64,000 bases of DNA, from positions 128,001 through 192,000 of the forward strand of contig JAWAHS010000001.1 in the NCBI GenBank assembly GCA_038889075.1, in the 5' to 3' direction. Position 1 is the first letter of the stretch. Each line of letters starts with the position of its first letter. The DNA is from Ignisphaera sp. GTDB taxonomy: Archaea > Thermoproteota > Thermoprotei_A > Sulfolobales > Ignisphaeraceae. The notes under the pieces are model-generated. The model was not told the origin of the DNA. It saw only the letters and a list, made by a program, of their open reading frames with translations, and searched no databases. Shown here one piece after another: positions 8,080 to 62,881 of this stretch. The position numbers and the translations under genes are program-made.

Positions 8080-8144
8080 ATTATTTATAGAACCTCACTG
8101 GAATGAGAACCGAGTACAGCTCAACATATGGATAGAACGGTATT

Positions 8145-9183: not shown

Positions 9184-9234
9184 TCAGGCTAATATATCTA
9201 GGGAAGCCACTATATATTAATAGGGTGTAGAGCT

Positions 9235-36266: not shown

Positions 36267-36267
36267 C

Positions 36268-37986: not shown

Positions 37987-37987
37987 T

Positions 37988-39730
37988 TTAAGTCAACCTT
38001 TTTAACTTTTTAACTCTATTGATAAGTCTGGAAAGGATTTCCGTATCGCATAGTACGCCTTTTGGAGGGTCTACAAGTCGCTTAACTTTAAGTGGGACAT
38101 CATCTAACCTGTACACTGTTCCCTCACACTCTATACCGGTAACAGCAGATGGTATAAGGATGTCCGCAACACTAGCAGTTAATGACCAGAAAGGATCTAT
38201 AACTATCTTTGGGATCTTCATTAGATTCTCAACTGCTTTTTGTGGGAAGTGCGCCACGGGATCGCTGGCAATTATTAAAGCCGCATCTACATCTGAATTT
38301 ATGAGTAGATCTATAGTTGTTGTCACACCTGGAATCATCTTTGGAAATCCTCTTGAAAATTCTACACCATATGGATAACCTGTTAGCCAAAGCATTGCAT
38401 GATTTGAACCTGTAACATTGTAGTGACCACGCATTGGTAGAAGAGTCCACTTGGTCCACTCATTAAGTTCCTGTACAAGTCTTATAACCTCTTCAAGATT
38501 CTTGTACTTTGCACCTCCTTGTGTCAACCCCATGCCGAAGAATATAACACCGAATTTAGCTGTTTTCATAACCTCTACAAGTTTGTATACCTCCTCCCTT
38601 GGAACACCAGCTACCTTGGGACTCTCTATCTCATAGTCTCTTAGAGCCATTCTTAGGGCTGTGAATAGCTCGTAATCTTTACCGGGCTCTATTTGTATAA
38701 AGATATCGGCAAGTTTAGCTGTATCACTCCTTCTCACATCTATCACAATGATCTTTCTCTCCTTACGTCCCTTCACGAATTTTCCATCTGGAAGAACAAC
38801 ACGTCTAATGTGATTTATGTGTGCATTCATTGGATTACAGCCCCAGAACACTATGGTATCTGCTAGATTCATGGCCATACCCAATGTAATTCGAACTGTA
38901 CCCACCTCTTGAACCGCCAATACTGTTGGGCCATGACATAGCGTAGTAGTGTTATCAACAACACCACGGGTAATTTCAGCAAGCTCTACGGCAAGCTCTG
39001 TAGCTTCTACACATGTATTCGACAGACCATAGATTAAGGGATACTTGGCATTAGCTAAAATTTCAGCTGCTCTATCTATGGCGTACTCAAGATCGACCTC
39101 TATAAAATTTCCATTCTTTACAGTTCTAATCATGGGGGTTAGAACTCTGTGTTTATAATAGTTCATGAACTTTGCATGTCCTATTGGACAAGCATTTACG
39201 ACTCTAACAGTTTTTTCACCATCTAGCTCCACGCTAAGGAAATCACATACTTCACCACAGAATGTACATGGTACATCATGTACCACTTTTTTAATACCTG
39301 TTGTCAAGGATCTTTCTGTTATCTTGTAATTGATTTTCTCAGCTCCAAGGAATCTGAATATAGCATCGAGCGGAGTTGCCTCCTCTGATGTAGCCTCAAC
39401 ATATACATCAACGTTTTTTAATGATGGCATACCGGTTCCTTCGGTTATTGGTAACGTTAGCACATTTGCCCAAGGACCCATTGGAACGAAAACTATACCT
39501 GGGGGAACGTCATTATTTGGTTTCACATTAACTACTATACTTCCATATACACTTGTAATCTTTGCATTATTCTTTATACCCAGAGCTTCGATATCCTTAG
39601 GGTTCATCTCAGCTATAGCAACGGCCTTTCTATATCCTTCGCCAAACTTCCCCTCTATTTCCATGGAACGTCCTTGCTCTGTTGTACGGCCTGTTACTAG
39701 CTTAAACATCAGTGGCATTGTTGCAATCAC
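37988..39730 (-). CDS. fwdB: Formylmethanofuran dehydrogenase D-B fusion
   Basis: N-terminal FwdD (TGRTTEQG..PMGPWAN..GMPSLK) in frame with FwdB (CTFCGEVCD, LCHGP, WGCNP, MRGHYNV). Confidence 0.93.
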   Translation of the reverse strand: MIATMPLMFKLVTGRTTEQGRSMEIEGKFGEGYRKAVAIAEMNPKDIEALGIKNNAKITSVYGSIVVNVKPNNDVPPGIVFVPMGPWANVLTLPITEGTGMPSLKNVDVYVEATSEEATPLDAIFRFLGAEKINYKITERSLTTGIKKVVHDVPCTFCGEVCDFLSVELDGEKTVRVVNACPIGHAKFMNYYKHRVLTPMIRTVKNGNFIEVDLEYAIDRAAEILANAKYPLIYGLSNTCVEATELAVELAEITRGVVDNTTTLCHGPTVLAVQEVGTVRITLGMAMNLADTIVFWGCNPMNAHINHIRRVVLPDGKFVKGRKERKIIVIDVRRSDTAKLADIFIQIEPGKDYELFTALRMALRDYEIESPKVAGVPREEVYKLVEVMKTAKFGVIFFGMGLTQGGAKYKNLEEVIRLVQELNEWTKWTLLPMRGHYNVTGSNHAMLWLTGYPYGVEFSRGFPKMIPGVTTTIDLLINSDVDAALIIASDPVAHFPQKAVENLMKIPKIVIDPFWSLTASVADILIPSAVTGIECEGTVYRLDDVPLKVKRLVDPPKGVLCDTEILSRLINRVKKLKRLT

Positions 39731-39733
39731 ATT

Positions 39734-40600
39734 CTATTCCTTTTTAACAGGCTTTTCAGCCAACTTCTCTTTAAACAGAACCTCACCCTTTGTACTATGT
39801 GGTGTTCTTACAACCGTATCTCCATACTTCTCAATCTCCCTAGCCTCATCTGCTAAGAGGGCAGCATACCTCATCATTTCATGCGCAGCTGCTACTATCG
39901 GGATGTACCTATCCGCTTCCTTGACTCTGAAGCATCCCTCAGTAGTTAAATCAGCGACATGCCGAGCAATTTCATAGGCTGCCATAGCTTTGACCTTTGC
40001 ATACGGATTCCTAAACTCAGCGTATCGTACAGCAGTTTCCTTGTCGACTACAATTTTGGGTAGCTGTATGTTCGTAATACCTTTTTTAATCTGATCGATT
40101 ACATTGTCGATCTCCCGTTGGAGGAGTCTGTAAACGCCTGTTATGGCCAGAACACGTATCAAATCGCCGTTGAAGAGCGTCATTTCAACGGGATCTAGAA
40201 ATTCTCTCCTTGCCCCAATCATTGAATCAGCTAAAACTATTATATAGCCAAACCCCTTAGCTTCAAGGTCCTTTACAATTTTGGATGTCGGTGCATCAGA
40301 TACTACAATGACATGTTTACCTTTCTCCTTAAGGGTTTCTCTAGCTTTTGTAGGTCCGGGGGTTGTTGCATTAGGGCTTACAACTAAATATATGTCGCAA
40401 TCTTCCCTAAAGCCTTTTTCAGCGAGTTCTAAACCATACTTTTCGTCATACATCTTGGCCCCTGTTGTGACAACTCTAACCTCAATGTCCATCCTATCAG
40501 CTCTTTCATCAAGGATGTACTCTAGGAGAGGTGCTGAAGCGATGCAACCAAGTTTTAGAATACATACCTTTACTGTTTTAGTTACCTCGGATTGAGACAT
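39734..40600 (-). CDS. mtd: F420-dependent methylene-H4MPT dehydrogenase
   Basis: KLGCI, LDERADR, SPN, DSMIGARREFLDP, AAHEM, RTPH. Confidence 0.96.
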   Translation of the reverse strand: MSQSEVTKTVKVCILKLGCIASAPLLEYILDERADRMDIEVRVVTTGAKMYDEKYGLELAEKGFREDCDIYLVVSPNATTPGPTKARETLKEKGKHVIVVSDAPTSKIVKDLEAKGFGYIIVLADSMIGARREFLDPVEMTLFNGDLIRVLAITGVYRLLQREIDNVIDQIKKGITNIQLPKIVVDKETAVRYAEFRNPYAKVKAMAAYEIARHVADLTTEGCFRVKEADRYIPIVAAAHEMMRYAALLADEAREIEKYGDTVVRTPHSTKGEVLFKEKLAEKPVKKE

Positions 40601-40658
40601 ATACCTTCCCTAAGAACTATTTTGTACTAAAGTACTTAAATCTTAATGATATAACATG

Positions 40659-41594
40659 TTACTGAATTTGTATATCGATATTCTTGGTTACCTCAAGAGC
40701 CTCCCTTAGATATAGATGGTATGGCCCAAGCTTGCCACCATAATTACCCGCATCGATCTTTACCACACCAGGTACTGTTGAAGCAGCTCGTATTGCTACA
40801 CCCATTGCAAATAATACATCCTCCTTCTTTAATCCATTTATAACAATCTCGTACACTGAATTAACCTCCTGTGGTAACTTGGAATCTTTAACAGCTCCCT
40901 TTAGTGTAGGACAGTAGAGATGGTTTGTTGTTGCTCTAAGCTTAGGATACTTTAGCGAGCCAACCTTGGAACCCGATCTCACTATACCACCTGGAAATGG
41001 TGTTATAACTCTCCTAGCGTATCTCCTTATGGCTTTAACAGCCTTCTCAGCAGCCATCAGACCAGCTTCACTACTCTTAGCTAGAATAAGAATGTTCCCC
41101 CCTGCAACACCTTTGATTACACCAAAGGAGTCCTCAATTATGAATTCACCTTCCATAACTGGAATCCTCCACACTTTCCTACCATGTAGTTCATCCTCTT
41201 TTTCAAAACCATCTCCAAATTTTGCAAGTGCGGTGCCCACACCCATTCTCCTTTTAGCCCATGGCAAACCATCGAATGCTGCTGTGGTAGGGCATGTGAG
41301 TATGGTTTGGCCAATCCGTGAAATTGTAATCATTTTAAGATTTACAGGATCTGTATGATAGAATTGAATTGCTATACCAACCCGCTTATCAGGTGTAAGT
41401 CTAGGCGATAAAAGGCATTCAATACCGGTTTCCCCAGGACTAGCAATGACAGAGGTACCGAAGCCTGTTGCAACCCGTCCAGCTATTAGTGCCCATTTAC
41501 GGTTCTTAGCTGTTACAATAATTCTTGTAGCATACATTGGGAATGCTTCTGCAAAAGTATCCTCAATTGAAGTACTTCCAATATCACGATTCAC
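40659..41594 (-). CDS. ftr: Formylmethanofuran:H4MPT formyltransferase
   Basis: IEDTFAEAF, TCPTTA, GVAGGN, SGSKVGS, EIVING, GNYGGKLG. Confidence 0.96.
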   Translation of the reverse strand: MNRDIGSTSIEDTFAEAFPMYATRIIVTAKNRKWALIAGRVATGFGTSVIASPGETGIECLLSPRLTPDKRVGIAIQFYHTDPVNLKMITISRIGQTILTCPTTAAFDGLPWAKRRMGVGTALAKFGDGFEKEDELHGRKVWRIPVMEGEFIIEDSFGVIKGVAGGNILILAKSSEAGLMAAEKAVKAIRRYARRVITPFPGGIVRSGSKVGSLKYPKLRATTNHLYCPTLKGAVKDSKLPQEVNSVYEIVINGLKKEDVLFAMGVAIRAASTVPGVVKIDAGNYGGKLGPYHLYLREALEVTKNIDIQIQ

Positions 41595-41681
41595 ATTTCA
41601 TCCCCTAAGAAATAGACCATTATTACTTATAAATTTTTAGCTCACAAGTACGTGGTGATGGATATTAAGAGGAGCTCATGA

Positions 41682-42440
41682 ATGAGGAGAATAGAGATCT
41701 ATGGGCTTAGAATAGACAAGGAAATTTTACCTGGGGATAATATAGCTGAAACGTTAATTATGGCAGCAGAAAGCAATGGTATTAGGATATTGGATGGTGA
41801 TATAATTGTCGTAAGTAGTAAGGTCATAGCTAAATCAGAGGGTCGAGTTGTTCCTCTGGATAGTGTGGAGCCGTCTGAGGAGGCTATGAGAATAGCTAAT
41901 ATAAGTAATAAGGATCCTAAACTAGTTGAATTGATATTGAGGGAATCAAAGGAAATTCTAAAAGTAGAGAGAAACAATATTATTGTGCTTACAAGACACG
42001 GTATTGTAGGAGCTAATGCAGGAATAGATCAGTCAAACACGGGAGGTACGGGAAAGGTTGTTTTGTTGCCTATAGATCCAGATGATTCAGCTAGGAAAAT
42101 TCGAAGATATATTAATGATAAGCTAGGAGTTAATGTAGCAGTAATAGTATCGGACACCTACGGCAGACCATTTAGAGAAGGACAAATCAATCTGGCAATA
42201 GGATTTGCAGGTATATGTCCGTACAGAGACTATAGGGGTCAAAGTGATAGGGATGGGTATATACTTAGAGTTAAGAATATTGCAATTGTGGATGAGATAG
42301 CAGCTGCCGCGGAGCTCGTTATGGGCCAATCAATAGAGAATACACCCTTTGCAATAGTTCGAGGAGTTGAATATGGTCGATGTGAGGAGGCCGGTTTTAA
42401 AGACATTGTAATGCCTAAAGAGCGGTGGCTGTTCAGATAA
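41682..42440 (+). CDS. cofE: F420-0:gamma-glutamyl ligase
   Basis: SKVIAKSEG, ANAGIDQSN, DTYGRPFREG, DEIAAAAELVMG. Confidence 0.93.
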   Translation: MRRIEIYGLRIDKEILPGDNIAETLIMAAESNGIRILDGDIIVVSSKVIAKSEGRVVPLDSVEPSEEAMRIANISNKDPKLVELILRESKEILKVERNNIIVLTRHGIVGANAGIDQSNTGGTGKVVLLPIDPDDSARKIRRYINDKLGVNVAVIVSDTYGRPFREGQINLAIGFAGICPYRDYRGQSDRDGYILRVKNIAIVDEIAAAAELVMGQSIENTPFAIVRGVEYGRCEEAGFKDIVMPKERWLFR

Positions 42441-42527
42441 ATAATCATAACATACCATATTGTGAAGCAGGGTAAATTTAAATACCATAGATTTAAATTC
42501 TACATATGTTACAGAGATTTAATGTGA

Positions 42528-43679
42528 TTGGCTTTGAGCAATACAAAGGTAACTAATGTATCGATGAACATAGATGTAGGTCTTTGTTCATTTTGTGGGG
42601 CATGTATAGCTATCTGTCCGACGCATGTAGGTTCAAAGAACCTTGATTACATTCCAGAGAAATCTGCCGATAAACCTGTTGTTAAGGATTTCCAAAAATG
42701 TGAGAAATGTAGACACACACTATGTATGCAGATATGTCCACAGTTAAACATACCGAGTAGCTCATTTAATACAAATAGTTACGGTTACCAAGGAGCATAC
42801 TATTCGAGGTCAAGGATGCAAGAAGTATTAAGTAGGGTACAGGATGGAGGGACGACCACAACACTTCTTCTTACAGCTCTAAGAGCAAAATTTGTGGACC
42901 ATGTATTAATCCTTAAAAAGGATGATGAATGGTATCCTAAACCTATGATTACTCAGAGTGAAAATGATGTTATAGAAGCAGGTGGTTCGAAATATGTTTT
43001 CTCTCCAATCCTTTCGGTTTTAGAAGAGGTTATAGATCGAATTGATATTGGTAAAGTAGCAGTTGTTGGTATTCCGTGTCAGTTGAGGGCTCTTGAAAAC
43101 ATTAGTAGACTTGGATTTAAACATAATAGTATCGCAGCTCTTAGAATCGGGTTATTCTGCATGCACAGTTTTTCAAGAGATAGAATGGAATTGATACTAA
43201 AGGAGCTTGGCGTACAATTCAAAGATGTGGTAAAAATGAATATAAAGAAAGGAAAGCTATGGTTTACACTAAGAGATGGAAGAATATTAGATTACCCATT
43301 AAGAAAAGCAGAGAAAGTACTCAGACCAGCATGTAGACAGTGTCCAGAGCTCTTTTCACCGTATGCCGATGTAAATGTGGGATCCATAGGAGCAGAGGAG
43401 AATTGGAATAGCCTATTGATTATGAATTCGAGAGGAAGAGAGCTTGTTGAAAAAGCGATTGACATGGGACTATTAGAGATTAAGCCTATGGACAATAGCG
43501 GTACTGAAACCATAGAAAAATATGTAAATAAAAAGGTTAGTGAAGCATTAAAGTATAGAGAGCTATATACTAAGGAGTTCCAAAATGTTCTACTCATAAC
43601 TCCTACAAAGAGAGGTAGAAAATTAAATGAGATCTTAGAACACAAGTCTGGAAGAAGTATCTATCTATCACCACTCTAG
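42528..43679 (+). CDS. FrhB/FdhB/FpoF-family F420-binding flavoprotein with N-terminal ferredoxin domain
   Basis: CSFCGACIAICP and CEKC..CMQICP; QDGG, GSKY, GIPCQ, GLFC, CRQC. Confidence 0.9.
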   Translation: MALSNTKVTNVSMNIDVGLCSFCGACIAICPTHVGSKNLDYIPEKSADKPVVKDFQKCEKCRHTLCMQICPQLNIPSSSFNTNSYGYQGAYYSRSRMQEVLSRVQDGGTTTTLLLTALRAKFVDHVLILKKDDEWYPKPMITQSENDVIEAGGSKYVFSPILSVLEEVIDRIDIGKVAVVGIPCQLRALENISRLGFKHNSIAALRIGLFCMHSFSRDRMELILKELGVQFKDVVKMNIKKGKLWFTLRDGRILDYPLRKAEKVLRPACRQCPELFSPYADVNVGSIGAEENWNSLLIMNSRGRELVEKAIDMGLLEIKPMDNSGTETIEKYVNKKVSEALKYRELYTKEFQNVLLITPTKRGRKLNEILEHKSGRSIYLSPL

Positions 43680-43681
43680 GG

Positions 43682-44158
43682 GTGGCTACAATGGTTAAAA
43701 AGATATTTATAGACATAGCGAAATGCATTGGCTGTCATGCTTGTGAAATAGCCTGTGAAGAAACTCATGGAAAATCGTACATATCTGTATATGAGGTTAC
43801 GGACTTCCTTACAATACCATTGAAGTGCATGCATTGTGAGAAAGCACCATGTATCAGAGTATGTCCGACTAGAGCTATGAGGAGAGCTGATGGTATCGTT
43901 GTCGTTGATGATGCTAGATGCATTGGCTGTACCTCTTGTATATCAGTATGTCCATTTGGAGCACCAGAGCTCAATATGAAAGGAATTATAGAAAAGTGTG
44001 ATCAATGTAGAATGCGTACTATGAAGGGTCTACTACCAGCATGTGTAGCAGTATGCCCTACGGGAGCACTAGTATTTATGGAGGAAGAGGAGTTTACCAA
44101 ATTAAGAAGATTAAATGTAGTAAAAGAACTGAGTGAAAAATTAGTAGCATATCAATGA
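43682..44158 (+). CDS. 4x[4Fe-4S] electron-transfer protein (CooF/HycB-like)
   Basis: CIGCHACEIAC, CMHCEKAPCIRVCP, CIGCTSCISVCP, KCDQC..CVAVCP. Confidence 0.9.
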   Translation: MATMVKKIFIDIAKCIGCHACEIACEETHGKSYISVYEVTDFLTIPLKCMHCEKAPCIRVCPTRAMRRADGIVVVDDARCIGCTSCISVCPFGAPELNMKGIIEKCDQCRMRTMKGLLPACVAVCPTGALVFMEEEEFTKLRRLNVVKELSEKLVAYQ

Positions 44159-44175
44159 ATGAAAATGAAATATAT

Positions 44176-44922
44176 CTAGAATGTGTACAGTTCATTCCAA
44201 TGTTTTTCGATTGCAATTTTTAAAGCGTTGATTGCTTCTCTAGAAACTCTCCCAAGTCTATTGCCGCTACATGCAGCCGTCCTAACGCCAATTACATTAA
44301 AACCCAGACTTACACATGTGGGGATGTGCTCAGCTCTTAAACCACCAGCAATAGCTGTATATAGACCGTTCCTATTAGCATTTAGAACAAATTCCTCTAA
44401 ATATCGAAGAGGGATGTGATCAAAGGTTGATTTGCCATCCTTAATTCGTGTATCAATCATAACCCCTTGAACTTTAGCTACTTTAGCTAGGTCAATGACT
44501 TTTAGAGGCTCTAATGTACCTATACTTTTCCAATCGGCATAACTAACTAAAACAATATCAGTTTCATTATTACAGTAGGCAATAGTTCTTCTAATCTGTG
44601 AAACTGTGGATACAGCTTTATCGTAATCGTTCATCTCTATTCCTATTTTGATGTAATCGACGTCAAGTAGAGATAGTGTGTAGGCTATATAGCTAAGGGC
44701 ATGACTATATTCTCTTACATCACCTATCGCTACGCTTATCTCCTTATAGTTTTCAACGCTATTCACAATGCTGAGGACGACGTCTAGCGATGGAAGTCCT
44801 AGGGAGCCTATAGAGGGATCTTTAACATCAATTATATCAGCACTGCTATTTATTACCTCTGGTACTTCATCTACAGTCCATATGCTGATAAGAAGTTTTG
44901 GTTTTACCCTTACAATGGACAT
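44176..44922 (-). CDS. mfnB: (5-formylfuran-3-yl)methyl phosphate synthase
   Basis: LLIS, DIIDVKDP..GSLG, DYIKIG, MIDT.IKDG, GVRTAAC. Confidence 0.9.
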   Translation of the reverse strand: MSIVRVKPKLLISIWTVDEVPEVINSSADIIDVKDPSIGSLGLPSLDVVLSIVNSVENYKEISVAIGDVREYSHALSYIAYTLSLLDVDYIKIGIEMNDYDKAVSTVSQIRRTIAYCNNETDIVLVSYADWKSIGTLEPLKVIDLAKVAKVQGVMIDTRIKDGKSTFDHIPLRYLEEFVLNANRNGLYTAIAGGLRAEHIPTCVSLGFNVIGVRTAACSGNRLGRVSREAINALKIAIEKHWNELYTF

Positions 44923-50662: not shown

Positions 50663-51634
50663 TCATACCGCCCTTCTATAGCTCTTCACTATATTTAAAA
50701 CTTTTTGTGCTAATATCACCTTAGCATCTATGCTATCCATAGCTATATTAGCTAGTGTCACATCTACTCCTATTTCTCCTTTTATCCTATGTGCTAAGTG
50801 TTCATCGGAAGAGTCTATAACGATGTCTGATATGATATCAGAATACATCTCAGCAATACTATATGCCGTTGGTTCGTAGCCTAAATACTTCAATAGAACA
50901 TGGGCTACCCCAGTAAAGGCTCTACCATTCCTAATTGGGGAAACTGCCACTATTGGTACCCCTGCTTCACGTTTCTTTCTAATACATTCTCTTATACCTC
51001 TAGTGCTAAGTATTGGATTTATGCTTAGGAATGGGTTGCTAGGTCCTATTACAATTATATCAGCGTTAGTTATAGCATTTAGAACTTCAGGTGGGGCCTT
51101 AGCTTCACCTATACCTCTGTATTCGATCTTGAAGACTTTTACCTTTTCAGGGTTCTGTTTAGCTGCATATTTAACGAGATATTCCTGAATGTGAAGGTCA
51201 CCTAGATCTGTATATATGTGTGTTTCTACATGTTCATCGCTCATAGGTAGAATTACCCCTTTAGCTTTAAGGACTTTAGAAATATACCTTGTAATCTCTG
51301 TTAATCTAAATCCTTGTCTAAGCATGTGGGTTCTAACTATGTGTATAGCTAGATCTCTATCTCCTAATACAAACCAGTCTAAAACGTTAAATCTCCTAAT
51401 CATACTGTATGTATTGAAAGTATCATTAATAATGCCCCAATACCTGCCAGTATCAAGTAATCCACAGGCAAGGTATGTAGCAGAATCGACGTCAGGTGCT
51501 ATGTAAAGGTCTAAAAGCCATATATTGTCAGCAGTGTTAACCACTACAGTTATCGTTTCTGGATCAATCAGTTCCCTTAATCCTTCAAAAAGCTTTAGAC
51601 CACCCTGGCCACCAGTAAGCAGGACAATATTCAC
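50663..51634 (-). CDS. cofD: 2-phospho-L-lactate transferase
   Basis: GGQGGLK, VNTAD, PDVD, LGDRD, PMSD, GPSNP. Confidence 0.95.
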   Translation of the reverse strand: MNIVLLTGGQGGLKLFEGLRELIDPETITVVVNTADNIWLLDLYIAPDVDSATYLACGLLDTGRYWGIINDTFNTYSMIRRFNVLDWFVLGDRDLAIHIVRTHMLRQGFRLTEITRYISKVLKAKGVILPMSDEHVETHIYTDLGDLHIQEYLVKYAAKQNPEKVKVFKIEYRGIGEAKAPPEVLNAITNADIIVIGPSNPFLSINPILSTRGIRECIRKKREAGVPIVAVSPIRNGRAFTGVAHVLLKYLGYEPTAYSIAEMYSDIISDIVIDSSDEHLAHRIKGEIGVDVTLANIAMDSIDAKVILAQKVLNIVKSYRRAV

Positions 51635-51647
51635 GTATGCGTCACCA

Positions 51648-52322
51648 CTATTTGTGTCTAATTAGGCTAGTCCCATACAGGGACAGAATTCTACATAGTT
51701 CCTTTCCTCCGTATATGCTACATAGCTGTTTGGCTATTATGAGATCCTCAGCTGTATCTATATCTATAGATGTACCTAGAGTGCTATATACATTTACCCT
51801 TATTGTTTTTTGGAGAGCTCTAGCTAGATGTTTTTGAAAGCTATTTTTACCGTGCATAAGCTCTATCATGAGTGGATACCTTTGTAACATTATATTTGTA
51901 CCGCCATCAATTGAAGGCGTGAGAACTATATCAAATCCATCTCTATAGAATCCTACGATGGTATTCACATCTTCACTTGAGACAAACGGAGCATCTGCTA
52001 CCCCAAAAATTACTGCATCGATTTTATATGGTATTGTTTCAAGGGCTTTGAGATAGGCCTCAATCTGTCCATTGCCACCATCATAAACTATATCTATGGT
52101 GAAATCTCGAACAGTTTCTCTTATACTTGGATCTGGGGTCACTAAGATTGTCTTATCAACATATCTCGAGCATGCATAGACGTGAATGACGTCTCTTAGC
52201 ATAGCTTTTACAATCTCTATACGAATAGATTTTTCTATTTCTTTAAGCCTGGATTTCGCTCTATTAAGATCTTTAATCGGTACCAGGGCAACAATCATTA
52301 TTAGCAACCATAGGATCTGCAT
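51648..52322 (-). CDS. cofC: 2-phospho-L-lactate/PEP guanylyltransferase
   Basis: VPIK..AKSRL, DGGTN, SFQKH, DIDT.EDL. Confidence 0.92.
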   Translation of the reverse strand: MQILWLLIMIVALVPIKDLNRAKSRLKEIEKSIRIEIVKAMLRDVIHVYACSRYVDKTILVTPDPSIRETVRDFTIDIVYDGGNGQIEAYLKALETIPYKIDAVIFGVADAPFVSSEDVNTIVGFYRDGFDIVLTPSIDGGTNIMLQRYPLMIELMHGKNSFQKHLARALQKTIRVNVYSTLGTSIDIDTAEDLIIAKQLCSIYGGKELCRILSLYGTSLIRHK

Positions 52323-52339
52323 CTAGTATGTGTTTCTAA

Positions 52340-52990
52340 CTATGGTATTATAAGCGTGTAAGGTGAGCAGCAGGAGGTTTTTTCTAATAAGCAATAGAGA
52401 GAATCTACATAGTGCGCATTTACAATAGCTGTAGGTATGCGATGTCTTCTGATTAATATAGGCGTATATTCATCAATAACATTTTGATTTAATGGAACGC
52501 TATCCGCTTTAATGGTTCTAGCTATACTGCCATTGACAATTATACCACTTACAAGTTTTGTTAATATGGCTATATCAGCCTTAAGTAGATGTGCTATGAA
52601 TACGGTGATAGCATCGCTTGTTACAGACCACGAGTGGGGTAGCTCATCATATTTTTTAATGATATTGAAGGGCATTATTAGGGGAAGGCGATTTCTAGAC
52701 CATACATCGTACACCCTCTCTAGGGTATCCGCACTCTCTATATAGCTACTTCTTGAGCTAATGAATGCACCATATACTTCCATGGACTTTATCGCCATCC
52801 AGTGTGCTGTCGAATCGTCGAAGTTTAGTCTCCTTTGAAGATCGCGAATCACATCTGCAAATATACTACCCCCTGGTACTATAGCTATTCTTATATCATT
52901 GTTCTGAAGCTTTGAGAGGGTATTGAGTAGCGTATCGAGAGTATCGGTACTCCATAGAAGATTGCCGCTAATTTTAACTACGGTTTTCAT
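52340..52990 (-). CDS. mfnE: Amino-acid-kinase family, MfnE-like
   Basis: VVKISG, PGGSIFAD, AHWMAI, PHSWSVTSD. Confidence 0.82.
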   Translation of the reverse strand: MKTVVKISGNLLWSTDTLDTLLNTLSKLQNNDIRIAIVPGGSIFADVIRDLQRRLNFDDSTAHWMAIKSMEVYGAFISSRSSYIESADTLERVYDVWSRNRLPLIMPFNIIKKYDELPHSWSVTSDAITVFIAHLLKADIAILTKLVSGIIVNGSIARTIKADSVPLNQNVIDEYTPILIRRHRIPTAIVNAHYVDSLYCLLEKTSCCSPYTLIIP

Positions 52991-52992
52991 AG

Positions 52993-54066
52993 TTACTTAG
53001 ACACCCTTTGGCGCATCATCATAGTAGCAGCATATGCTGGAAATACAGCTGATATCTGTGGTTCTATAAGATTATCTATATCTACAATTACTTTAAAGCC
53101 AGCTCTTTTTGCTGCTTCACTTGCTAGAAACTTTCCTACACCGGCTACAACTACCTTAAAAATCGATGGATCTATATTAAGGGAAGCTATATAGCTTCTA
53201 ATTTGCATTAAAGCACCAGACACCATATGTATCTGCATCTCGTAGATGTATCTAGCCATCTCCCTAATTTCAAACTCGTTCAATATCATCATATCGCCAC
53301 ACACTACTCGAGCCAACCTCTCCATAGCCTCCTCTAAAGAGGTACCTCTGCCATCAGCCGTCTCTGTTGTATACTCGCTACTCGATATGTTTCTTAGTAT
53401 GAGGTGGACATCGCCTACCAATGCGAATCTCTCATTGCATATTCTAGCGTAGAGTCCCTTTATGGGAACCCTATCAACAATGCCTACAACATTACTTCTT
53501 AGAATGCCGGTATATACAAGCTCGCCAACGATAAGTTTCTCGGTATCTGTAAATCCTCTTACACAAGCTTTTCCGCTGATTATAGGAATTAGAGTAGTCG
53601 TTGTACTACCTATATCAACAAATATGCTATTTTCAATACCCCATCTATACGAGTATCTCTCCAAAAACCATGCAGAAGCAGCCCAGTTTGCTCCTGCAAC
53701 TTTCAGATAGTTCTCAATAGCCTCATCACTAGATACTAGCTTCATATCACTAGAGACAAACTTTATATCGATCGCATCGCTAAATGCATCCATAGATGAT
53801 CTGACTATGTGTTCAACACCTTCTCTTTTAACTCTATAGACATCACTTAGTTCAGCTGTCATGCATATAGCTATATAGTACTGTTCACTATCCGTAATAA
53901 TACTTCTTCTAATCTCTCTAAGCTTTTCCTCTAAACCTTTTCTACCACGGATCCATATAGGGAAATATTCTCGCAGAACTGATAGCACCTTTACCTCATT
54001 ATCGTATGCGTCTATTTTCACAGCCTTTATATTAGCACCTCCTATATCGAGACCAACAATAATCAA
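52993..54066 (-). CDS. mfnF: Hydantoinase-A-like methanofuran synthesis protein
   Basis: DIGGANIK, MTAELSD, ANW, DIGSTTT, ELVYTG, TADG. Confidence 0.88.
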   Translation of the reverse strand: MIIVGLDIGGANIKAVKIDAYDNEVKVLSVLREYFPIWIRGRKGLEEKLREIRRSIITDSEQYYIAICMTAELSDVYRVKREGVEHIVRSSMDAFSDAIDIKFVSSDMKLVSSDEAIENYLKVAGANWAASAWFLERYSYRWGIENSIFVDIGSTTTTLIPIISGKACVRGFTDTEKLIVGELVYTGILRSNVVGIVDRVPIKGLYARICNERFALVGDVHLILRNISSSEYTTETADGRGTSLEEAMERLARVVCGDMMILNEFEIREMARYIYEMQIHMVSGALMQIRSYIASLNIDPSIFKVVVAGVGKFLASEAAKRAGFKVIVDIDNLIEPQISAVFPAYAATMMMRQRVSK

Positions 54067-54143
54067 GGTGCAGCACCTACGGCTAATTAGGTGAGCAACG
54101 CTATATATTAGCTATTGTAAACAGTCTCTAGGGCTGGCTATAT

Positions 54144-54830
54144 ATGATTGAAAAGGTTAAGGTTATACCTGTAGTGGATGTAATGAATGGTTTAGCAGTA
54201 CATGCTATTGAGGGAAAGAGGGATATGTATAGACCTATAGAGGGTAGCATTATATCATCTTCTCCTGATCCCAGGGATGTCCTCCAGGGGCTGCATAGGT
54301 ACGGATTTAGAGAAGTCTATATAGCTGATCTAGACGCTATTATGGGTAGGGGAGATAATACATGGGTTCTGGACTACGCTATTAGATTGGGATTCAAAGT
54401 TATAGCGGATATTGGCAGAGGAGGTCTCGAAAAAACAGATTCAAACAGTATTAGATATGTTATAGGGACGGAATACATTTCGTACCCATATGAGGTTAAA
54501 AAACTTAGCAATAGAATTGTAAGCCTGGACTGCCATAATTTAAATACAAAGTTTTCAGATAGATATGTCGAGGCTTCGCTAGCAGCAGAACTACTTATGA
54601 GAATTGGTATAACTGAATTGATAGTTCTAGACCTTACACGCGTGGGATCTATGAGGGGTCCAAATCTCCAACTTATAAGTAGTGTTAGGGAAGTTTATAG
54701 AGGCACGATTTATGTAGGTGGCGGTATCAGGGGAAGGAGTGATATTGAGGAATTGAAGAGATTTGATGTGGATGGCGTTCTACTGGCTACAGCAATACAC
54801 AAGGGAATAATACTCAATGTATATCTCTAA
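54144..54830 (+). CDS. HisA/HisF-related protein (H4MPT/MFR-cluster type)
   Basis: IPVVDV..AVHA..G.R..YRP, YIADLDAI, LDLTRVGS..GP, GGGIR. Confidence 0.82.
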   Translation: MIEKVKVIPVVDVMNGLAVHAIEGKRDMYRPIEGSIISSSPDPRDVLQGLHRYGFREVYIADLDAIMGRGDNTWVLDYAIRLGFKVIADIGRGGLEKTDSNSIRYVIGTEYISYPYEVKKLSNRIVSLDCHNLNTKFSDRYVEASLAAELLMRIGITELIVLDLTRVGSMRGPNLQLISSVREVYRGTIYVGGGIRGRSDIEELKRFDVDGVLLATAIHKGIILNVYL

Positions 54831-54881
54831 CTTCAGGATAGATTTTTAATTTATTTACTGTATATATTTTTGGTGGAAAAC

Positions 54882-55076
54882 GTGTGTGAATCCATAGCCT
54901 ATATAAGGGAGGGCAACTCTGAAAAACTCTATGCACGAGATATAGCTACGTTGGTAATTGAAGAGAATAAGATAGTACTCATAGATATTGCTGGCAATAC
55001 ATACACCTTAACAGATGCCGTATTAGAGTACGTAGACTTTGTTGGTCATAGAATCATTTTAAGAAAAACCGATTGA
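54882..55076 (+). CDS. cooT: CooT-family nickel-binding protein
   Basis: GTG start behind GGTGG gives MCESIAY (Cys2), DIAG, C-terminal HRIIL. Confidence 0.8.
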   Translation: MCESIAYIREGNSEKLYARDIATLVIEENKIVLIDIAGNTYTLTDAVLEYVDFVGHRIILRKTD

Positions 55077-55159
55077 GATCAATGTAGAATTGAGGATGAC
55101 TGTGTTGATATATTAAGAACTAATTAATTAGTATTGGAGAAAAAATTATTTTTACCTAT

Positions 55160-55876
55160 TTATTTTGCAGGTTTGAATATATACTCATAGAGAGTCGCTC
55201 CTATTATACCCCCTATTATAGGTCCTATTAGATATATCCATACCTTGGATAGAGGCAGTAGATCACCAGCAATAGCTGCAGCTATTGCCGGTCCAAGAGA
55301 TCTTGCAAAATTCATGCTTGCACCTGTTAACGGTCCTCCAATCCATATATCGCAGGCTACTATCATCCCTATTGAAAACCCTGCCCAGCCTGTCGGTGCC
55401 CGTTTATCTACGGCTACACCCATTATTACAAATAGTAGCCATAATGTGAGGATGATCTCTATAACTACGGCTGCACCATCTCCTACTCCAGTACCTGGAA
55501 GTGTAGAACCAAAGCGAACAGCCTTACCTGCAACTGGGAAGAATCCGTAGAGGCAGAGACCTGCTATAATGGAACCTATAATCTGAGCAGCTATATAGGG
55601 TGCTACAAGTTTAGCAGGAAGTCTTCCAATAGCAGCAAGGGCGACTGTTACAGAAGGGTTTATATGTGTACCCGAGATGTGACCCAGGGTATAGATCATT
55701 ATCATTACAATAAAGCCGAATGTAGCACCTATACCAAATAGTGCAGCAGGGCCGCCACCAAGTATCGAGATTAGGGTTATAACTGATGCAGGTCCGAATA
55801 GTGTTAGAGCCCATGTGCCAAATATCTCTGCTATAAACATCTGTAGCAATGTAGGCTGGGTCTTTTGACTAGCCAA
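55160..55876 (-). CDS. MIP/aquaporin family channel with NPS/NFA motifs
   Basis: AEIFGT, HISGTHINPSVT, GASMNFARSLGP, WIY..GP. Confidence 0.92.
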   Translation of the reverse strand: MASQKTQPTLLQMFIAEIFGTWALTLFGPASVITLISILGGGPAALFGIGATFGFIVMIMIYTLGHISGTHINPSVTVALAAIGRLPAKLVAPYIAAQIIGSIIAGLCLYGFFPVAGKAVRFGSTLPGTGVGDGAAVVIEIILTLWLLFVIMGVAVDKRAPTGWAGFSIGMIVACDIWIGGPLTGASMNFARSLGPAIAAAIAGDLLPLSKVWIYLIGPIIGGIIGATLYEYIFKPAK

Positions 55877-56014
55877 CCATTTTCACCCACAGTACTTAAT
55901 CCGGTTATGGGGTATATAAGCTTTTCTCTATATATAGAAAGGGAATTCATGGCCTATGCAAGCTATTGTTGAAAAAGAATTTAAAAATACGGATTATTTT
56001 TATTTTGTTTTAAT

Positions 56015-57568
56015 CTAGGCAGCCTCTACTCCAGCCGTTAATGGCACTGTTTTAGCTATACCTATTCTATACCAGCACCACTTACATCTACCACTTAGGA
56101 ATGTCTGGCTAACGCCGCATGCCTTACATATTGGTGGTGGCGCTATTGGTTTTTCTGGATGTAGCGCTACAATATATGTATTGATTGTAGCAGTAACAGG
56201 TTCGCTTGTTAAGAGGCATGGGAAGTCCGCTAATCTCATAAGCGATGAAAATCTCACTGTTATTGCACAACCTGGATAGGTGTATCTCTGCGGAGCCATC
56301 AGGACAGCATTTCTCTTTATGGGTGATAGATCTATCTTAAGACCCTTTAGTACATAGCCATCTCTTCCAAATGGTGAAGGTCTGATTACGTCTGCGCCTC
56401 TCATGATGAGGTCTATGAAGTCAGCATTGTGTAGTTCTGCAGCAGGGCTTCTAGTTGGGTATTTCAGTACAAAGTTGTGGAATCTCTTTACAAGTAGGTC
56501 AGCAACAGTTTCACCTGTGAAGCCATCCAATTCAAGTATAAATGTTGTTGCTCCAGCAAGGGTTCTACCTGCGGCTGTTAAGGCATCATATTCGCTCTTT
56601 ATAAGACCCTCCTTAACACCTTTAGTCAGAGTTACATCTAGGACATCTGTAACAGCCTCCATAATAGCCATAGTCATATCATCTTTAGCCATGTTGTACA
56701 TGCTCTGAGATATATGGTGACCCACATCGCCAACACCATATGCTGGTACGACAGTGAGATTAGCGGGGTGTACACCTGCATTAAGTGCCGCCTTTATATA
56801 TGGTAGCATCCTATCCTTAAATTTGCTCATATATGTTGCAGGATCAAAGCTCCTATGGCCAACAGCCTTCATGACATCTATCTGCATTTTTACAGGTTCT
56901 AGCCACATCTTCTTCAGAGCTTCGATCTCTTCCTTCACAGCCTCATCAAGGGATTTGCCAGCCTCAACTGCTGCTACAAATGTTGCTCCAAAGCCATAGC
57001 TTGTAGCCATACCCCAGCTCTTAGCAGCAAGTATTATCTCCTTGTGCTCCTTTGGAATATCAAGCTTCTCAAGAATGGCTGCATGTATTCCCGGCATTCC
57101 TCCAACAGCATAGGCAAAGTCAACCACACATGTAGGTCCATAGAACCCTGCATACTTCCTAACGAGTTCTCTACCTATGAATCCTTTATGCTCCTCTAAA
57201 GCTTTTGTAAACTTTTCAACCGATTCTTTAAATTTTGGATCAAGCTCATACAGAATCTCAAGAACTACAGGTGTCTGGTAGTGCTCAACGTAGGGATCGT
57301 CCTCAGGAACTATGGTTTTATCGACAGCAATTTCATTTAGAATATCGTAGTGTGCAACAACACTAGCTACAAACAGATCTATAACCTCCTTCTTCATAGG
57401 GCCAACAGCAGCCATTTTCTTTGTAGCTTCAACATACGGGGCTGCATCAGGTATGACGAATTTGCCTCCGCGCCTCTCTCTAATGACAGAAATATCAGCT
57501 TTTTGAGCAGCAATAGCATCTTCAACAATTTTGGTTACTACTTCAGGTGGAAGACTTGAAGTACCCAA
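56015..57568 (-). CDS. DUF2193 family protein
   Basis: PEDDPYVEHYQTP, GFYGPTCVVDFA, KSWGM, DVGHHISQS, RFSSLMRLADFPC, C-terminal CKAC..CKWC. Confidence 0.85.
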   Translation of the reverse strand: MGTSSLPPEVVTKIVEDAIAAQKADISVIRERRGGKFVIPDAAPYVEATKKMAAVGPMKKEVIDLFVASVVAHYDILNEIAVDKTIVPEDDPYVEHYQTPVVLEILYELDPKFKESVEKFTKALEEHKGFIGRELVRKYAGFYGPTCVVDFAYAVGGMPGIHAAILEKLDIPKEHKEIILAAKSWGMATSYGFGATFVAAVEAGKSLDEAVKEEIEALKKMWLEPVKMQIDVMKAVGHRSFDPATYMSKFKDRMLPYIKAALNAGVHPANLTVVPAYGVGDVGHHISQSMYNMAKDDMTMAIMEAVTDVLDVTLTKGVKEGLIKSEYDALTAAGRTLAGATTFILELDGFTGETVADLLVKRFHNFVLKYPTRSPAAELHNADFIDLIMRGADVIRPSPFGRDGYVLKGLKIDLSPIKRNAVLMAPQRYTYPGCAITVRFSSLMRLADFPCLLTSEPVTATINTYIVALHPEKPIAPPPICKACGVSQTFLSGRCKWCWYRIGIAKTVPLTAGVEAA

Positions 57569-57584
57569 TTATAACCACCACGTT

Positions 57585-57598
57585 CCTAACTGGTTAGG
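57585..57598. promoter_or_regulatory. Palindrome between the TATA box and start of DUF2193
   Basis: CCTAAC-TG-GTTAGG; minus-strand TTTAAATA at 57603-57610. Confidence 0.4.
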
Positions 57599-58569
57599 TA
57601 GTTATTTAAAGGTTTCTAAATATATTAGAATAGAATCGTTCGAATTTGAACTATTAATAATGTCAAGGTAATCACTGTTCTATGAATAGATAGATTCTAA
57701 GTATAGAAGGTAAACATTATCATGCATAGCGGCAACAACAATAGCAATGGAATAATGTCTCTCTTACCGCTTACAGAGGTAGTTTGAGAGCCTATATTTA
57801 AGTTTTTATGCACCTTCAATGATAGAAGTACAATGGAGAAGAAATGTAACGTGTACATGGTAGAGGATCTTGAATTGTAAACATTATTGAAATCCGGAAA
57901 TAGTACATCTTTTTATAATAACGTATAGAGTACTTATTCTATTTGTTCTTGATGAACGTAATTAATGATATACTCTCTTCTGCTCTAATGATCACTTGTT
58001 CTATAAGATCTTAGGCATAGTATTGACGAAATTTATACAGGCAATACTACCGATATTTTCGATGATGCAACAATTGTAATCTTACTACATTAATTCCAAA
58101 TTTGATTCTGAACTGTTGATTATACTGGTTAGCTTATAGAGATGTAGTGGCTAGAAGCAGTTTCGACAGAGTTATCAAAATAGTATCTAATTCCGTAACA
58201 TATATAAAGATGGAGATAGCCTATCTCAACCAGATATCCGTGAACGTTTTGATCTCTATTGATATTCTAAAATCTTCTATCTAAAATCTTCATTAACTGC
58301 GCTTTCTTCCTCGAATGGTTCCTTACTATAATCAGAAACGGTTCAGCTGTGCAGATTCCTCGATGCGCTGTATTAGTGTGCTATTGCGTAGCGTAGAGCA
58401 GGCTTTTTATGGAGGTATGTAATGTTTTCGAGTTTACGAATTTAAGTACCTGAAGGAATTCACATAGAGAATTTGACCGAAACTCTACTACAACTTTTCA
58501 ACGGATTTTTAGTAAATGCTTCACACATTTCATATAACCAGTGATATTCATAACACAGTGTTCCATTAC

Positions 58570-59775
58570 CTAGCATTTGTTCCAACTATTTAGTTTATCT
58601 ATGGATATCCTCAATTCCCTTCCTCTATATGTAAATGATGATTCGTCAAAAAATAGATGCTGTGTACCGGATTCCCTCTCCGATATGGTTACGATTGCAA
58701 TTCCGCTGGCCACGTCCCCTAGGTATATATGGGTATCAAAGTTTCTATTCGTCATTGCATTTACGATTATCTTACCCACCTCTGGATAGAGTCTTGCTAT
58801 GGCTATAAATGGTGTTGTTAACCTTGGGTTAACCTCAACGACAATAGGTTTTCCATCCCACATAACTATGTCAAATCCTATGTAACCTTCTATATCGTTA
58901 TAGCATTGAATTAACTTTGTTAGAAACCTATGGACGTTTTTAACGATTTCACAATCTCTAACTGGAAGTATGTTTCCCCTATATCTAAATGCATTACCAT
59001 CCAATTCTATAATTTGTTTGTTAACTGAATAGAACAATATTTTTCCATTGCTTATAATTGTTGAAATGCTTCCATGAATTCCTTCAATGTATTGCTGGAC
59101 GACAGCTCTACGAAGAGGATCGCACCGTAGAGCTCTTATAATATATCTCTCAGCATCGCTTGGGCTCCTCGCTATGTAGACACACTCTGAACCTGCAAGC
59201 ATACAGGGTTTAACAACAACTGGGTATTCTAGCGATTTCAAATCAATATTACTGACATCTCTAACCTCTACAGTTTCAGGTACAGCTATCCCACATCTTC
59301 TGAGGACCATCATGGAGTTATACTTATCTGAAAGTAGTTGAATCGAATTTGTACTAGGTCCCCATATCTTCCTACCTACAATTTCAGCTAATCTCACTAA
59401 CTCCATAGGTGGTGCAATCACAATAATTTTATTGTATTCTTCTGCAATTTTAGAAACATTTTCTTCAAAGTAGTTACAGTCAATATAGTGGGCAATATCA
59501 ATGTCATCTCTATAGACATGGGCTAGCAAACGTGAAACAGCAATGCGTGTTTCAACATATTTGTTGAGGAGTTTAGCTAGAGTATAAGCCATTGAGAAGC
59601 CCTCCGGAAGTAGGGCATCGTATTGGTTACGGCATTTGAATGTTGCTGTCACGTACTCTAGAACAAGTACCCTAAACTCTCTACCTCTAGGGTAATGCTC
59701 TATACTATGAGACATAGTAAATAGAGGAGTAAAATAGACTTTATATACCTTATGGTATGAAAACCGTGTCAACAT
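58570..59775 (-). CDS. mfnD: Tyramine-glutamate ligase (ATP-grasp), MfnD-like
   Basis: LEYVTA..EGFSM, IAP, SDKY, VVKP, QQYIEG.HGS, GYIGFD, EVNPRLTT; true start probably downstream of the ORF start. Confidence 0.78.
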   Translation of the reverse strand: MLTRFSYHKVYKVYFTPLFTMSHSIEHYPRGREFRVLVLEYVTATFKCRNQYDALLPEGFSMAYTLAKLLNKYVETRIAVSRLLAHVYRDDIDIAHYIDCNYFEENVSKIAEEYNKIIVIAPPMELVRLAEIVGRKIWGPSTNSIQLLSDKYNSMMVLRRCGIAVPETVEVRDVSNIDLKSLEYPVVVKPCMLAGSECVYIARSPSDAERYIIRALRCDPLRRAVVQQYIEGIHGSISTIISNGKILFYSVNKQIIELDGNAFRYRGNILPVRDCEIVKNVHRFLTKLIQCYNDIEGYIGFDIVMWDGKPIVVEVNPRLTTPFIAIARLYPEVGKIIVNAMTNRNFDTHIYLGDVASGIAIVTISERESGTQHLFFDESSFTYRGRELRISIDKLNSWNKC

Positions 59776-62870: not shown

Positions 62871-62881
62871 CAATACTATGG

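Follow-up and report, generated by a model that had tools for sequence, protein, structure and literature searches.

A conserved DUF2193-AqpM gene pair in Ignisphaera and its probable tie to the methanofuran/tetrahydromethanopterin pathway

The window analyzed here is a stretch of 64,000 nucleotides from the genome of an Ignisphaera sp. (genome G000; 1.95 Mb, 99.6% complete) that ends at position 192000 of contig C1, and all window coordinates are positions within that stretch. On its minus strand lie the two genes with which this report is concerned, one encoding a protein of the function-unknown family DUF2193 (56015..57568) and the other an AqpM-type channel of the MIP (aquaporin) family (55160..55876). 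The DUF2193 open reading frame (ORF) starts with TTG and encodes a 517-residue, predicted soluble and all-alpha protein (PF09959, E 2e-201), with the 238-residue MIP ORF (PF00230, E 1.3e-46) beginning 138 bp downstream on the same strand, such that the arrangement given in a first-pass annotation made from the sequence is borne out by both Pfam matches. The 138 bp spacer (55877..56014) has T-runs after the DUF2193 stop codon and a TATA-like TTATATA at about 55919-55913 ahead of the MIP start. Upstream of DUF2193, the TATA box that had been proposed for this gene was located as TTTAAATA at 57603..57610 (57610-57603 in the direction of the gene), 35-42 nt before the TTG, followed by GGTGG at 57579-57575, with all promoter and T-run assignments at the two genes being readings by eye.

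The closest public loci are those of Ignisphaera metagenome-assembled genomes (MAGs), which are up to 94% identical. A 2507-nt contig from a sediment metatranscriptome library spans 55020-57523 with 51 differences and includes the MIP gene, the spacer and the DUF2193 ORF minus its first 45 nt. Material from a close relative in an RNA library thus extends over both genes, which does not in itself prove a single transcript. The contigs of this library leave 57618-58622 and portions of the adjacent genes uncovered and nothing was drawn from gaps or depth. The end of the RNA contig was considered as a transcript start and rejected, because assembly breaks near 57500-57529 are also found in the DNA run. 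An Rfam scan of the window gave no match. The 1 kb between DUF2193 and the next gene upstream, of the ATP-grasp type (57569-58569), holds no ORF of at least 60 codons and no Rfam match, which is unusual for a region so tightly packed.

Residues 9-501 of the DUF2193 protein align to positions 2-495 of the 498 positions of PF09959 with 670.3 bits against a gathering cut-off of 25, with no NCBIfam model matching the protein. It is 52-56% identical over some 490 residues to homologs from Moorella, Sporomusa, Desulfitobacterium, Methanococcus and Methanolobus. An alignment of 34 DUF2193 sequences contains about 100 invariant columns, including H73, H96, H284, H285 and H380 together with many Asp, Glu, Lys and Tyr residues. 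The motifs earlier singled out as potential metal ligands are present and conserved in this alignment, E95-H96-Y97-Q98, H284-H285 and E378-L379-H380-N381 being invariant or nearly so. The C-terminal motif C481-K-A-C484-x10-C495-K-W-C498 is likewise present in the window protein. Since the polar residues are so strongly conserved an enzyme role is favored, and we infer that DUF2193 would be an enzyme rather than a carrier. By analogy with the homolog from Methanococcus voltae (Mvol_0354), for which one [4Fe-4S] cluster per subunit has been reported (Dieter et al., 2025; PMC12375889), the window protein probably carries one such cluster on its C-terminal cysteine tail, in line with the iron-sulfur (Fe-S) metalloprotein that the first-pass annotation had envisaged.

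A profile search of 1.84 billion representative sequences gave 183 matches, every one of them a DUF2193 protein or a fragment of one, and revealed no remote relatives. A search of the ESM Atlas yielded no usable look-alike, a search among proteins of 906-2585 residues found no DUF2193 fusion (weak evidence), and nothing clear emerged from the N-terminal extension of P0122 or from the POR piece attached to P0134. A tree of 84 rows places the window protein within a Thermoproteota clade with 100% support on the longest inner branch, and it has, therefore, not been imported recently from methanogens or Bacillota. The structure prediction and fold search that had been called for gave a confident model and no convincing solved relative. 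The AF2 model is all-helical (pLDDT 86.2, pTM 0.89), the cysteine tail being of low confidence (pLDDT 53-66), and no membrane-like segment is found in the protein (maximum 19-residue Kyte-Doolittle score 1.39). Foldseek comparison of the whole model with the PDB returned nothing at E <= 0.001, the best match having an E of 0.039 and TM scores being 0.14-0.16, all to membrane transporters, while VIA-align against 48,161 chains reached at best a Z of 6.5 over 104 residues with only two chains at Z >= 5. No fold was assigned, because these VIA-align scores lie below what helical proteins reach by chance. Prediction of a DUF2193-MIP complex scored 0.00 in both runs, which yields no verdict.

The window MIP is the sole MIP match in the genome and its closest solved chains, ranked first in a search of the PDB, are 3ne2 (E 2.8e-40) and 2evu (E 1.3e-32). 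By alignment its selectivity filter is F53/I177/A186/R192, corresponding to F62/I187/S196/R202 in 2evu, such that three of the four positions of the Phe-Ile-Ser-Arg filter are the same and Ser is replaced by Ala, a residue found at that position in 20 of 69 linked MIPs. A filter of Phe, Ile or Val, a small residue and Arg is common to the whole set of 69 full-length channels, from bacteria as well as archaea, whose genes are linked to DUF2193. The window MIP is without canonical NPA boxes, having NPS at 73-75 and NFA at 189-191. An NFA second box occurs in 11 of the 69 linked MIPs, all within the Ignisphaera/Desulfurococcales/Thermoprotei group and all with NPS as well, the twelfth MIP with NPS being that of a Bacillota locus (L053) with a normal second NPA box. 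The TIGR00861 score of 154.8 bits is below the cut-off of 171.25. The AqpM-type channel would conduct a small uncharged solute.

The linkage of DUF2193 to MIP genes was followed across 82 distinct loci, obtained after removal of six duplicates, of which 75 could be judged for MIP. In 65 of these 75 a MIP gene lies directly downstream on the same strand and in 10 the locus holds none, while in two further, short loci the MIP gene is divergently upstream of DUF2193. The pairing across genomes that the first-pass annotation had set as a test of its proposal is thus found in both domains. Both the pairing and the Fe-S nature of the protein were already known, because they were published by Dieter et al. 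(2025), who report a MIP/aquaporin gene adjoining 91% of methanogen DUF2193 homologs. When all neighboring ORFs were clustered, DUF2193 and MIP alone were general and the next commonest clusters were genes of the methanofuran/tetrahydromethanopterin (H4MPT) pathway, with an MfnD-like ATP-grasp cluster, found in 19 loci, the most frequent neighbor after MIP. Of the 82 distinct loci, 25 have one or more pathway genes within about 8 kb, among them all 11 Bacillota loci, and 14 have three or more.

The clearest operon context is bacterial. In Neomoorella sulfitireducens the DUF2193-AqpM pair heads a run of 21 genes on one strand (L040 and L090), with a gene for a GAF-PAS sigma-54 activator upstream. 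The pair is followed by genes for beta-RFAP synthase, AfpA/dihydromethanopterin reductase, a DHPS-like protein, DUF447, an Mpt_N-type Mtd and an ATP-grasp protein (up to gene 8), by FwdD, FwdB, FwdA, Ftr, FwdC, Mch and MptN (genes 9-15), and by CitG-like, MfnB, MfnD-like, TIGR03123/MfnF, MfnE and hisAF-related genes (genes 16-21). The TIGR03123/MfnF-like, MfnE-like and TIGR00734 genes of the window have homologs among those that close this operon. Formimonas warabiya (L031 and L091) has a near-identical gene set with one MfnE-like gene inverted and with FolE and FdhD in addition. A sigma-54 promoter motif, TGGC-N8-TGC (mostly TGGCAT-N5-TTGC), precedes the start of DUF2193 by 56-144 nt in 11 of the 14 bacterial loci examined and was not matched in L029, L052 and L071, the latter two also being without a sigma-54 activator. 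In L052, from an unclassified bacterium, the order is a sodium/solute symporter, DUF2193, MfnD-like, FwdD, FwdB, FwdA, Ftr, FwdC, Mch and MptN, and in L071, from a Synergistaceae MAG, it is a LarA-like gene, DUF2193, Mpt_N Mtd, ATP-grasp, FwdD, FwdB, FwdA, MptA-FolK, AfpA and a DHPS-like gene, with no MIP gene in either. Among archaea, ftr, mtd, fwd and mch lie beside DUF2193 in three Thermoproteota MAGs (L017, L019, L022) and one Bathyarchaeota MAG (L034), the Mpt_N-type Mtd gene being the immediate same-strand neighbor of DUF2193 in L017 and L019 as it is in L071.

Several loci showed features of their own. In an Ignisphaera MAG (L020, from genome G010; 8001-10521) both genes look broken, as DUF2193 has an in-frame TAG within the invariant PEDDP motif and the MIP gene needs two frame changes, reflecting either decay of the two genes together or errors in the assembly. 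A Peptococcaceae MAG (G042) has two DUF2193-AqpM-H4MPT clusters on different contigs (L026 and L028) and two Mch genes. Another Ignisphaera genome (G012; L002/L076) has another type of DUF2193 that groups with Baldrarchaeota and Bathyarchaeota and is followed by a MIP with canonical NPA/NPA boxes. The DUF2193 genes of the MAGs at L034 ("Bathyarchaeota") and L037 ("Actinomycetota") are near-identical (end branches 0.009 and 0.023) and both have a divergent upstream MIP gene, which is likely to stem from a binning error or a very recent transfer. An in-frame TGA in FwdB of Neomoorella sulfitireducens (G048:C23:86187-87446) and of another member of the Bacillota (G400:C1:2044951-2046210) suggests a selenocysteine-containing formylmethanofuran dehydrogenase.

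Co-occurrence with the pathway was examined in a sample of 401 genomes of the Bacillota, the phylum of Neomoorella sulfitireducens (G048), and within the genus Ignisphaera, with the figures describing a pattern and not a probability as related genomes are not independent. In the Bacillota sample DUF2193 is present in 8 genomes, Mch in 30 and Fae in none. Mch was found in 7 of the 8 genomes with DUF2193 compared to 23 of the 393 without it, and six of the former seven have the two genes on one contig, 8-13.5 kb apart. Among the Mch-positive genomes FwdB scores over its cut-off in 7/7 with DUF2193 versus 3/23 without. The 23 genomes with Mch and without DUF2193 are unusual in that many hold two to five Mch copies and 20 of them have no FwdB over the cut-off, suggestive of some other, unexplained use for the Mch paralogues. 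When all 15 bacterial genomes with DUF2193 are taken together Mch is present in 10, the other five being MAGs of unknown completeness, three of which carry H4MPT biosynthesis genes beside DUF2193. No Fae was found in four operon-bearing Bacillota genomes (G042, G045, G048, G052). The argument that DUF2193 and Fae are complementary was rejected, because Fae is missing from Mch-positive genomes with and without DUF2193 and indeed from the whole Bacillota sample.

Among the 17 genomes of the genus, DUF2193 is present in 8 of the 16 relatives of G000, and Mch is found in all nine genomes with DUF2193. Mch is present in 14 of the genomes and the three without it are all without DUF2193. FwdB, over its cut-off in 15 of the 17, was rejected as a discriminator within the genus as it is found regardless of DUF2193. 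The family is rare in the phylum to which Ignisphaera belongs, with no DUF2193 found in 260 other sampled genomes. A clean deletion of the pair was sought in congeners and no indel could be read, because the gene arrangement differs and identity is low, the mfn, hisAF and ATP-grasp genes of G003, G006 and G008 being rearranged and 36-54% identical; Mch is found in the compared stretch of G003 alone among these three (66% identical).

The surroundings of the pair in the window are those of a one-carbon and cofactor island. Convergent with the MIP gene is a 68-residue CooT-like ORF (54870-55076, plus strand; PF10133, E 1.6e-10), preceded by a hisA/hisF-related gene (54144-54830, plus strand; TIGR00734), with cofD, cofC, mfnE-like and TIGR03123/mfnF-like genes on the minus strand within 50663..54830 (Pfam and NCBIfam matches). 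On the other side lies an ATP-grasp_3 gene (58570..59775, minus strand; PF02655, E 9.6e-32) with a weak match to MfnD (NF040722, 69.7 bits, below the cut-off), and beyond it hypF/hypC/hypE (59892-63940). The placement of the pair between cooT/hisA-like genes and mfnD in the first-pass annotation therefore stands, with the MfnD assignment being a weak one. Further along, within 34426..44922, are minus-strand mch, fwdC-like, fwdA, fused fwdD/B, F420-type mtd and ftr genes, together with cofE, an FrhB-like gene and a ferredoxin gene (plus strand) and mfnB (minus strand), all by Pfam. The 580-residue protein encoded at 37988-39730 (minus strand) has an N-terminal molybdopterin-dinucleotide-binding domain followed by a molybdopterin oxidoreductase domain and appears to be a fused FwdD-FwdB. 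Two minus-strand ORFs between the cofE-like gene and cofD, of 246 residues (49199-49939) and 200 residues (50056-50658), have no Pfam or NCBIfam match, the latter being strongly hydrophobic.

The first-pass annotation had taken this to be a minimal island lacking Mer and Mtr, which proved to be an effect of the window edge. A gene for an MtrH homolog (contig C1, 192263-193141, minus strand) and one for Mer (193246-194241, plus strand; TIGR03555, 443.5 bits, over the cut-off) lie 0.3-2.2 kb past the end of the window. Mer is followed by a 13-gene cluster for an Mrp/Mbh-type membrane-bound [NiFe] hydrogenase, within 192263-204000 of the same contig (locus L096), that fits the hypF/hypC/hypE genes inside the window. 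Fae is encoded on contig C2, while McrA was searched for in the genome and not found. G000 has known routes into methylene- and methyl-H4MPT, because Fae, Mer and an MtrH homolog are present. The missing entry step which DUF2193 had been proposed to fill is, as such, not missing here, and five congeners have Mch and FwdB without DUF2193. Also at odds with the proposal are the reported non-essentiality of the homolog in Methanococcus maripaludis (Dieter et al., 2025) and Methanosarcina acetivorans, a control genome in which DUF2193 is present with no MIP match. DUF2193 is thus regarded as an accessory of the pathway and not an obligatory entry, because Fae is on C2, those congeners do without DUF2193 and the M. 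maripaludis homolog is non-essential; in G000 the module would be dispensable equipment alongside Fae, Mer and the MtrH homolog. What the window holds is an ordinary, intact member of a known and functionally unsolved gene pair that is accessory in the genus.

From the operon context in bacteria and archaea and the co-occurrence with Mch and FwdB, the DUF2193-AqpM pair is probably tied in function to the methanofuran/H4MPT pathway, in keeping with the pathway link that the first-pass annotation had drawn, whose own condition for refutation, the lack of MIP linkage or H4MPT co-occurrence, thus speaks for it. This tie is well supported and, by literature search, not in print. The explanation we tentatively prefer, while considering it possible and not yet probable, is that the pair is an accessory channel-plus-enzyme unit for a one-carbon solute, a two-gene module of strict anaerobes that run the pathway, in which DUF2193 would be a soluble, all-helical and very slowly evolving protein. 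The AqpM channel would let a small neutral one-carbon compound across the membrane and a cytoplasmic DUF2193 metalloenzyme would act on it, the step from channel-borne solute to DUF2193 as the enzyme acting on it being one that we hold with reserve. The solute may be formaldehyde or methanediol, or a compound yielding it, with DUF2193 capturing it for methylene-H4MPT, after which Mtd, Mch, Ftr and Fwd would oxidize the one-carbon unit. A solute at the level of formaldehyde is favored because of the position at the head of an inducible operon, the adjacency of Mtd and the lack of Fae in those bacteria, and as a specific claim it is doubtful. More doubtful still is a version in which DUF2193 is an Fe-S enzyme of new fold serving as the Fae-independent anaerobic entry and turning formaldehyde/methanediol or a precursor, let in by a dedicated AqpM, into methylene-H4MPT or into free formaldehyde at the cofactor. 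On this version the pair would supply the first step that is lacking from the sigma-54 operon of some 21 genes in Bacillota and from the Synergistota, Bathyarchaeota and Thermoproteota clusters.

A number of observations weigh against this explanation. Five congeners keep Mch and FwdB without DUF2193 (G003, G004, G006 and G008, at least 97% complete, and G013, 72%), Methanocaldococcus jannaschii, used as a control, has Mch, FwdB and Fae and no DUF2193, and M. acetivorans, which has DUF2193, gives no MIP match. Fae is present in G000, all 30 Mch-positive Bacillota genomes are without it whether DUF2193 is present or not, and hydrogenotrophic methanogens have no obvious external source of formaldehyde. 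A pathway gene is near DUF2193 in only 3 of 43 euryarchaeal loci, and the operon evidence is mostly from bacteria and Thermoproteota, with dependence between related genomes. The association of DUF2193 in Bacillota is closer with FwdB than with Mch, a pattern that the CO2 end of the pathway would accommodate no less well. An Fe-S cluster on a tail modeled at low confidence would suit electron transfer or sensing more than catalysis. The roles proposed for the M. voltae protein are those of Fe-S carrier, sensor or regulator (Dieter et al., 2025).

The CO2 end has to be weighed accordingly, with AqpM easing the entry or exit of CO2 and DUF2193 acting as a cytoplasmic CO2-handling or Fwd-associated protein that would hydrate, trap or deliver CO2 or pass electrons via its [4Fe-4S] tail to formylmethanofuran dehydrogenase. 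Hosts of DUF2193 include hydrogenotrophic, methylotrophic and aceticlastic methanogens, Archaeoglobi, Methanoperedens, Ignisphaera and Bacillota, and the Fwd reaction (CO2 to and from formyl-methanofuran) is the one common to all these types, so that the CO2 end explains both host range and FwdB correlation at least as well as the channel-plus-enzyme unit. It would also suit the placing of DUF2193 directly before the MfnD-like gene, FwdD, FwdB and FwdA in L052 and two genes before FwdD in L071, and the finding of no FwdF/G-type ferredoxin gene among the annotated ORFs of the bacterial operons. In Methanocalculus at 25 MPa, AqpM is reported to top the table of significantly up-regulated genes, rising from 2.17 to 9.19 normalized reads per kilobase per million (RPKM), a condition read by the authors as CO2 limitation (PMC12727201). 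A substrate-inducible sigma-54 operon headed by a CO2 channel would, however, be unusual, and in L052, where there is no MIP, the same-orientation gene directly upstream is a sodium/solute symporter, a carrier that cannot move CO2. CO2 or H2S was reportedly suggested as a possible solute by the authors of the AqpM structure. The need of prokaryotes for CO2 channels is disputed. FwdB is present without DUF2193 in six congeners (those five and G015), M. jannaschii likewise has Fwd and no DUF2193, and an invariant body of 500 residues exceeds the needs of an electron shuttle, such that we regard the CO2 end as unlikely. The only experiments that exist for DUF2193 point elsewhere, to an Fe-S carrier or an Fe-S/redox sensor that is not a one-carbon enzyme, with an oligomer switch regulating Fe-S acquisition, the channel or expression and the MIP serving iron or sulfur uptake, for example of sulfide. 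As well as its cluster, the M. voltae protein is reported to be a tetramer in the apo form and a monomer in the holo form, to reach 13-fold higher levels on pyrite than on Fe(II)/sulfide and to co-purify with nucleic-acid-binding E. coli proteins (Dieter et al., 2025), the greater abundance on pyrite having also been reported earlier (Payne et al., 2022). The flexibility of the cluster-binding tail suggested by the AF2 model would be in keeping with such a role. MIPs are themselves tetramers, as is apo-DUF2193. An aquaporin pore is too narrow for Fe-S clusters. No DNA-binding domain is seen, Pfam detecting PF09959 alone, some 100 positions invariant across domains would be atypical for a carrier or sensor, and neither the position at the head of bacterial operons nor the joint occurrence with Mch and FwdB, both uncommon in the phylum concerned, is explained, which makes a carrier or sensor improbable.

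The cofactor genes around DUF2193 raise the further idea that it helps to make or mature methanofuran, H4MPT or the metal cofactor of Fwd, with the MIP a passenger. In the window it is embedded among cofC, cofD, mfnE, mfnF-like, hisAF-related and ATP-grasp genes; in Bacillota its neighbors include RFAP synthase, AfpA, the DHPS-like gene, DUF447, MptN and MfnB/D/E/F, with FdhD at the end of the Formimonas cluster, and the MfnD-like ATP-grasp gene ranks next to MIP among its neighbors generally. Yet both cofactors are made and Fwd is present in M. jannaschii, a species without DUF2193, the same five congeners keep Mch and FwdB without it, and the M. maripaludis homolog is reported to be non-essential where the pathway is essential (Dieter et al., 2025). 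A mere passenger, moreover, would not have kept its place beside DUF2193 in 65 of 75 loci from two domains. A core biosynthetic or Fwd-subunit role is disfavored by this non-essentiality and by the pathway genomes that lack DUF2193, and a biosynthesis or maturation factor is held to be very unlikely. The remaining explanation denies a functional one-carbon link altogether and regards the pair as a self-contained accessory unit, for osmotic or solute stress for example, carried along with horizontally transferred H4MPT islands. It draws on the 40 of 43 euryarchaeal loci without a nearby pathway gene, on the patchy distribution within the genus and its absence from the other 260 genomes of the phylum sampled, and on the dependence between related genomes, through which co-occurrence counts overstate the case. 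Nevertheless, gene order around DUF2193 is not the same in the Bacillota, L052, L071, L034 and Thermoproteota clusters, with their DUF2193 proteins coming from separate branches of the tree, DUF2193 leads the operon under a sigma-54 promoter, and it is retained in fwd operons even where the MIP has been lost. Such passive carriage is, in our judgment, a slim prospect.

DUF2193 is among the most conserved function-unknown proteins of methanogens and related anaerobes and the physiological solute of AqpM has been an open question since the structure was solved. Overall, the observation on which the first-pass annotation was built is confirmed, along with the Fe-S nature, the pairing and the pathway link, whereas the gap in the island and the obligatory entry role are not upheld. 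What is new is the evidence from operons and co-occurrence, through which the function of DUF2193 becomes testable, and the finding of the pair at the head of complete bacterial methanofuran/H4MPT operons turns a vague idea of Fe-S trafficking into hypotheses that can be assayed. Were the pair a device for one-carbon entry or exit, it would add a step to one of the oldest carbon pathways and would explain why acetogen-like Bacillota keep an archaeal-type one-carbon route.

Full-text literature searches found no paper linking DUF2193 to H4MPT or methanofuran, none linking tetrahydromethanopterin to aquaporin (the aquaporin gene of a Desulfofundulus paper being in an unrelated insert), and none on aquaporin with formaldehyde and methanediol or on Formimonas warabiya with formylmethanofuran. 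The closest known system is the M. voltae protein, the only characterized PF09959 member, in the published text on which, supplementary tables aside, the word methanopterin is absent (Dieter et al., 2025). The window protein shares with it the full-length family match, the C-terminal cysteine region and the downstream MIP gene, the M. maripaludis homolog being 52% identical to the window protein, but differs in belonging to a separate, well-supported Thermoproteota clade and in lying inside a one-carbon/cofactor island. The window motif CX2C-X10-CX2C is one residue longer than the CX2CX6DX2(H/C)X2C reported for the family (Dieter et al., 2025), with all four ligand positions present, Cys taking the H/C position and Leu the Asp position, the latter a change seen throughout the Thermoproteota clade. 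The channel has the Phe/Ile/small/Arg filter type of AqpM of Methanothermobacter marburgensis (2evu/2f2b) and Archaeoglobus fulgidus (3ne2), its best PDB matches, and differs from them by its NPS and NFA boxes, by Ala186 in place of Ser196 and by a TIGR00861 score under the cut-off. To Fae (PF08714), the enzyme through which formaldehyde enters on H4MPT, DUF2193 may be a functional analogue only, as both would precede methylene-H4MPT dehydrogenase. There is no relation in sequence or fold, Fae being small and metal-free and DUF2193 a 517-residue, by homology Fe-S, protein, and while the Bacillota operons have DUF2193 without Fae, G000 has both. The bacterial H4MPT/methanofuran clusters described by Chistoserdova (2016; PMC5020050) have the same set of mch, ftr, fwd/fhc, mtd and cofactor genes as those described here, and Ignisphaera, Firmicutes and Synergistetes are already listed there as carriers of the H4MPT pathway that retain fwdD and afp, with neither DUF2193 nor aquaporin mentioned in the part of that paper available to us. 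In clusters of methylotrophs fae is present and fwdD absent, whereas the clusters reported here are those of anaerobes, hold FwdB/D and begin with DUF2193-AqpM.

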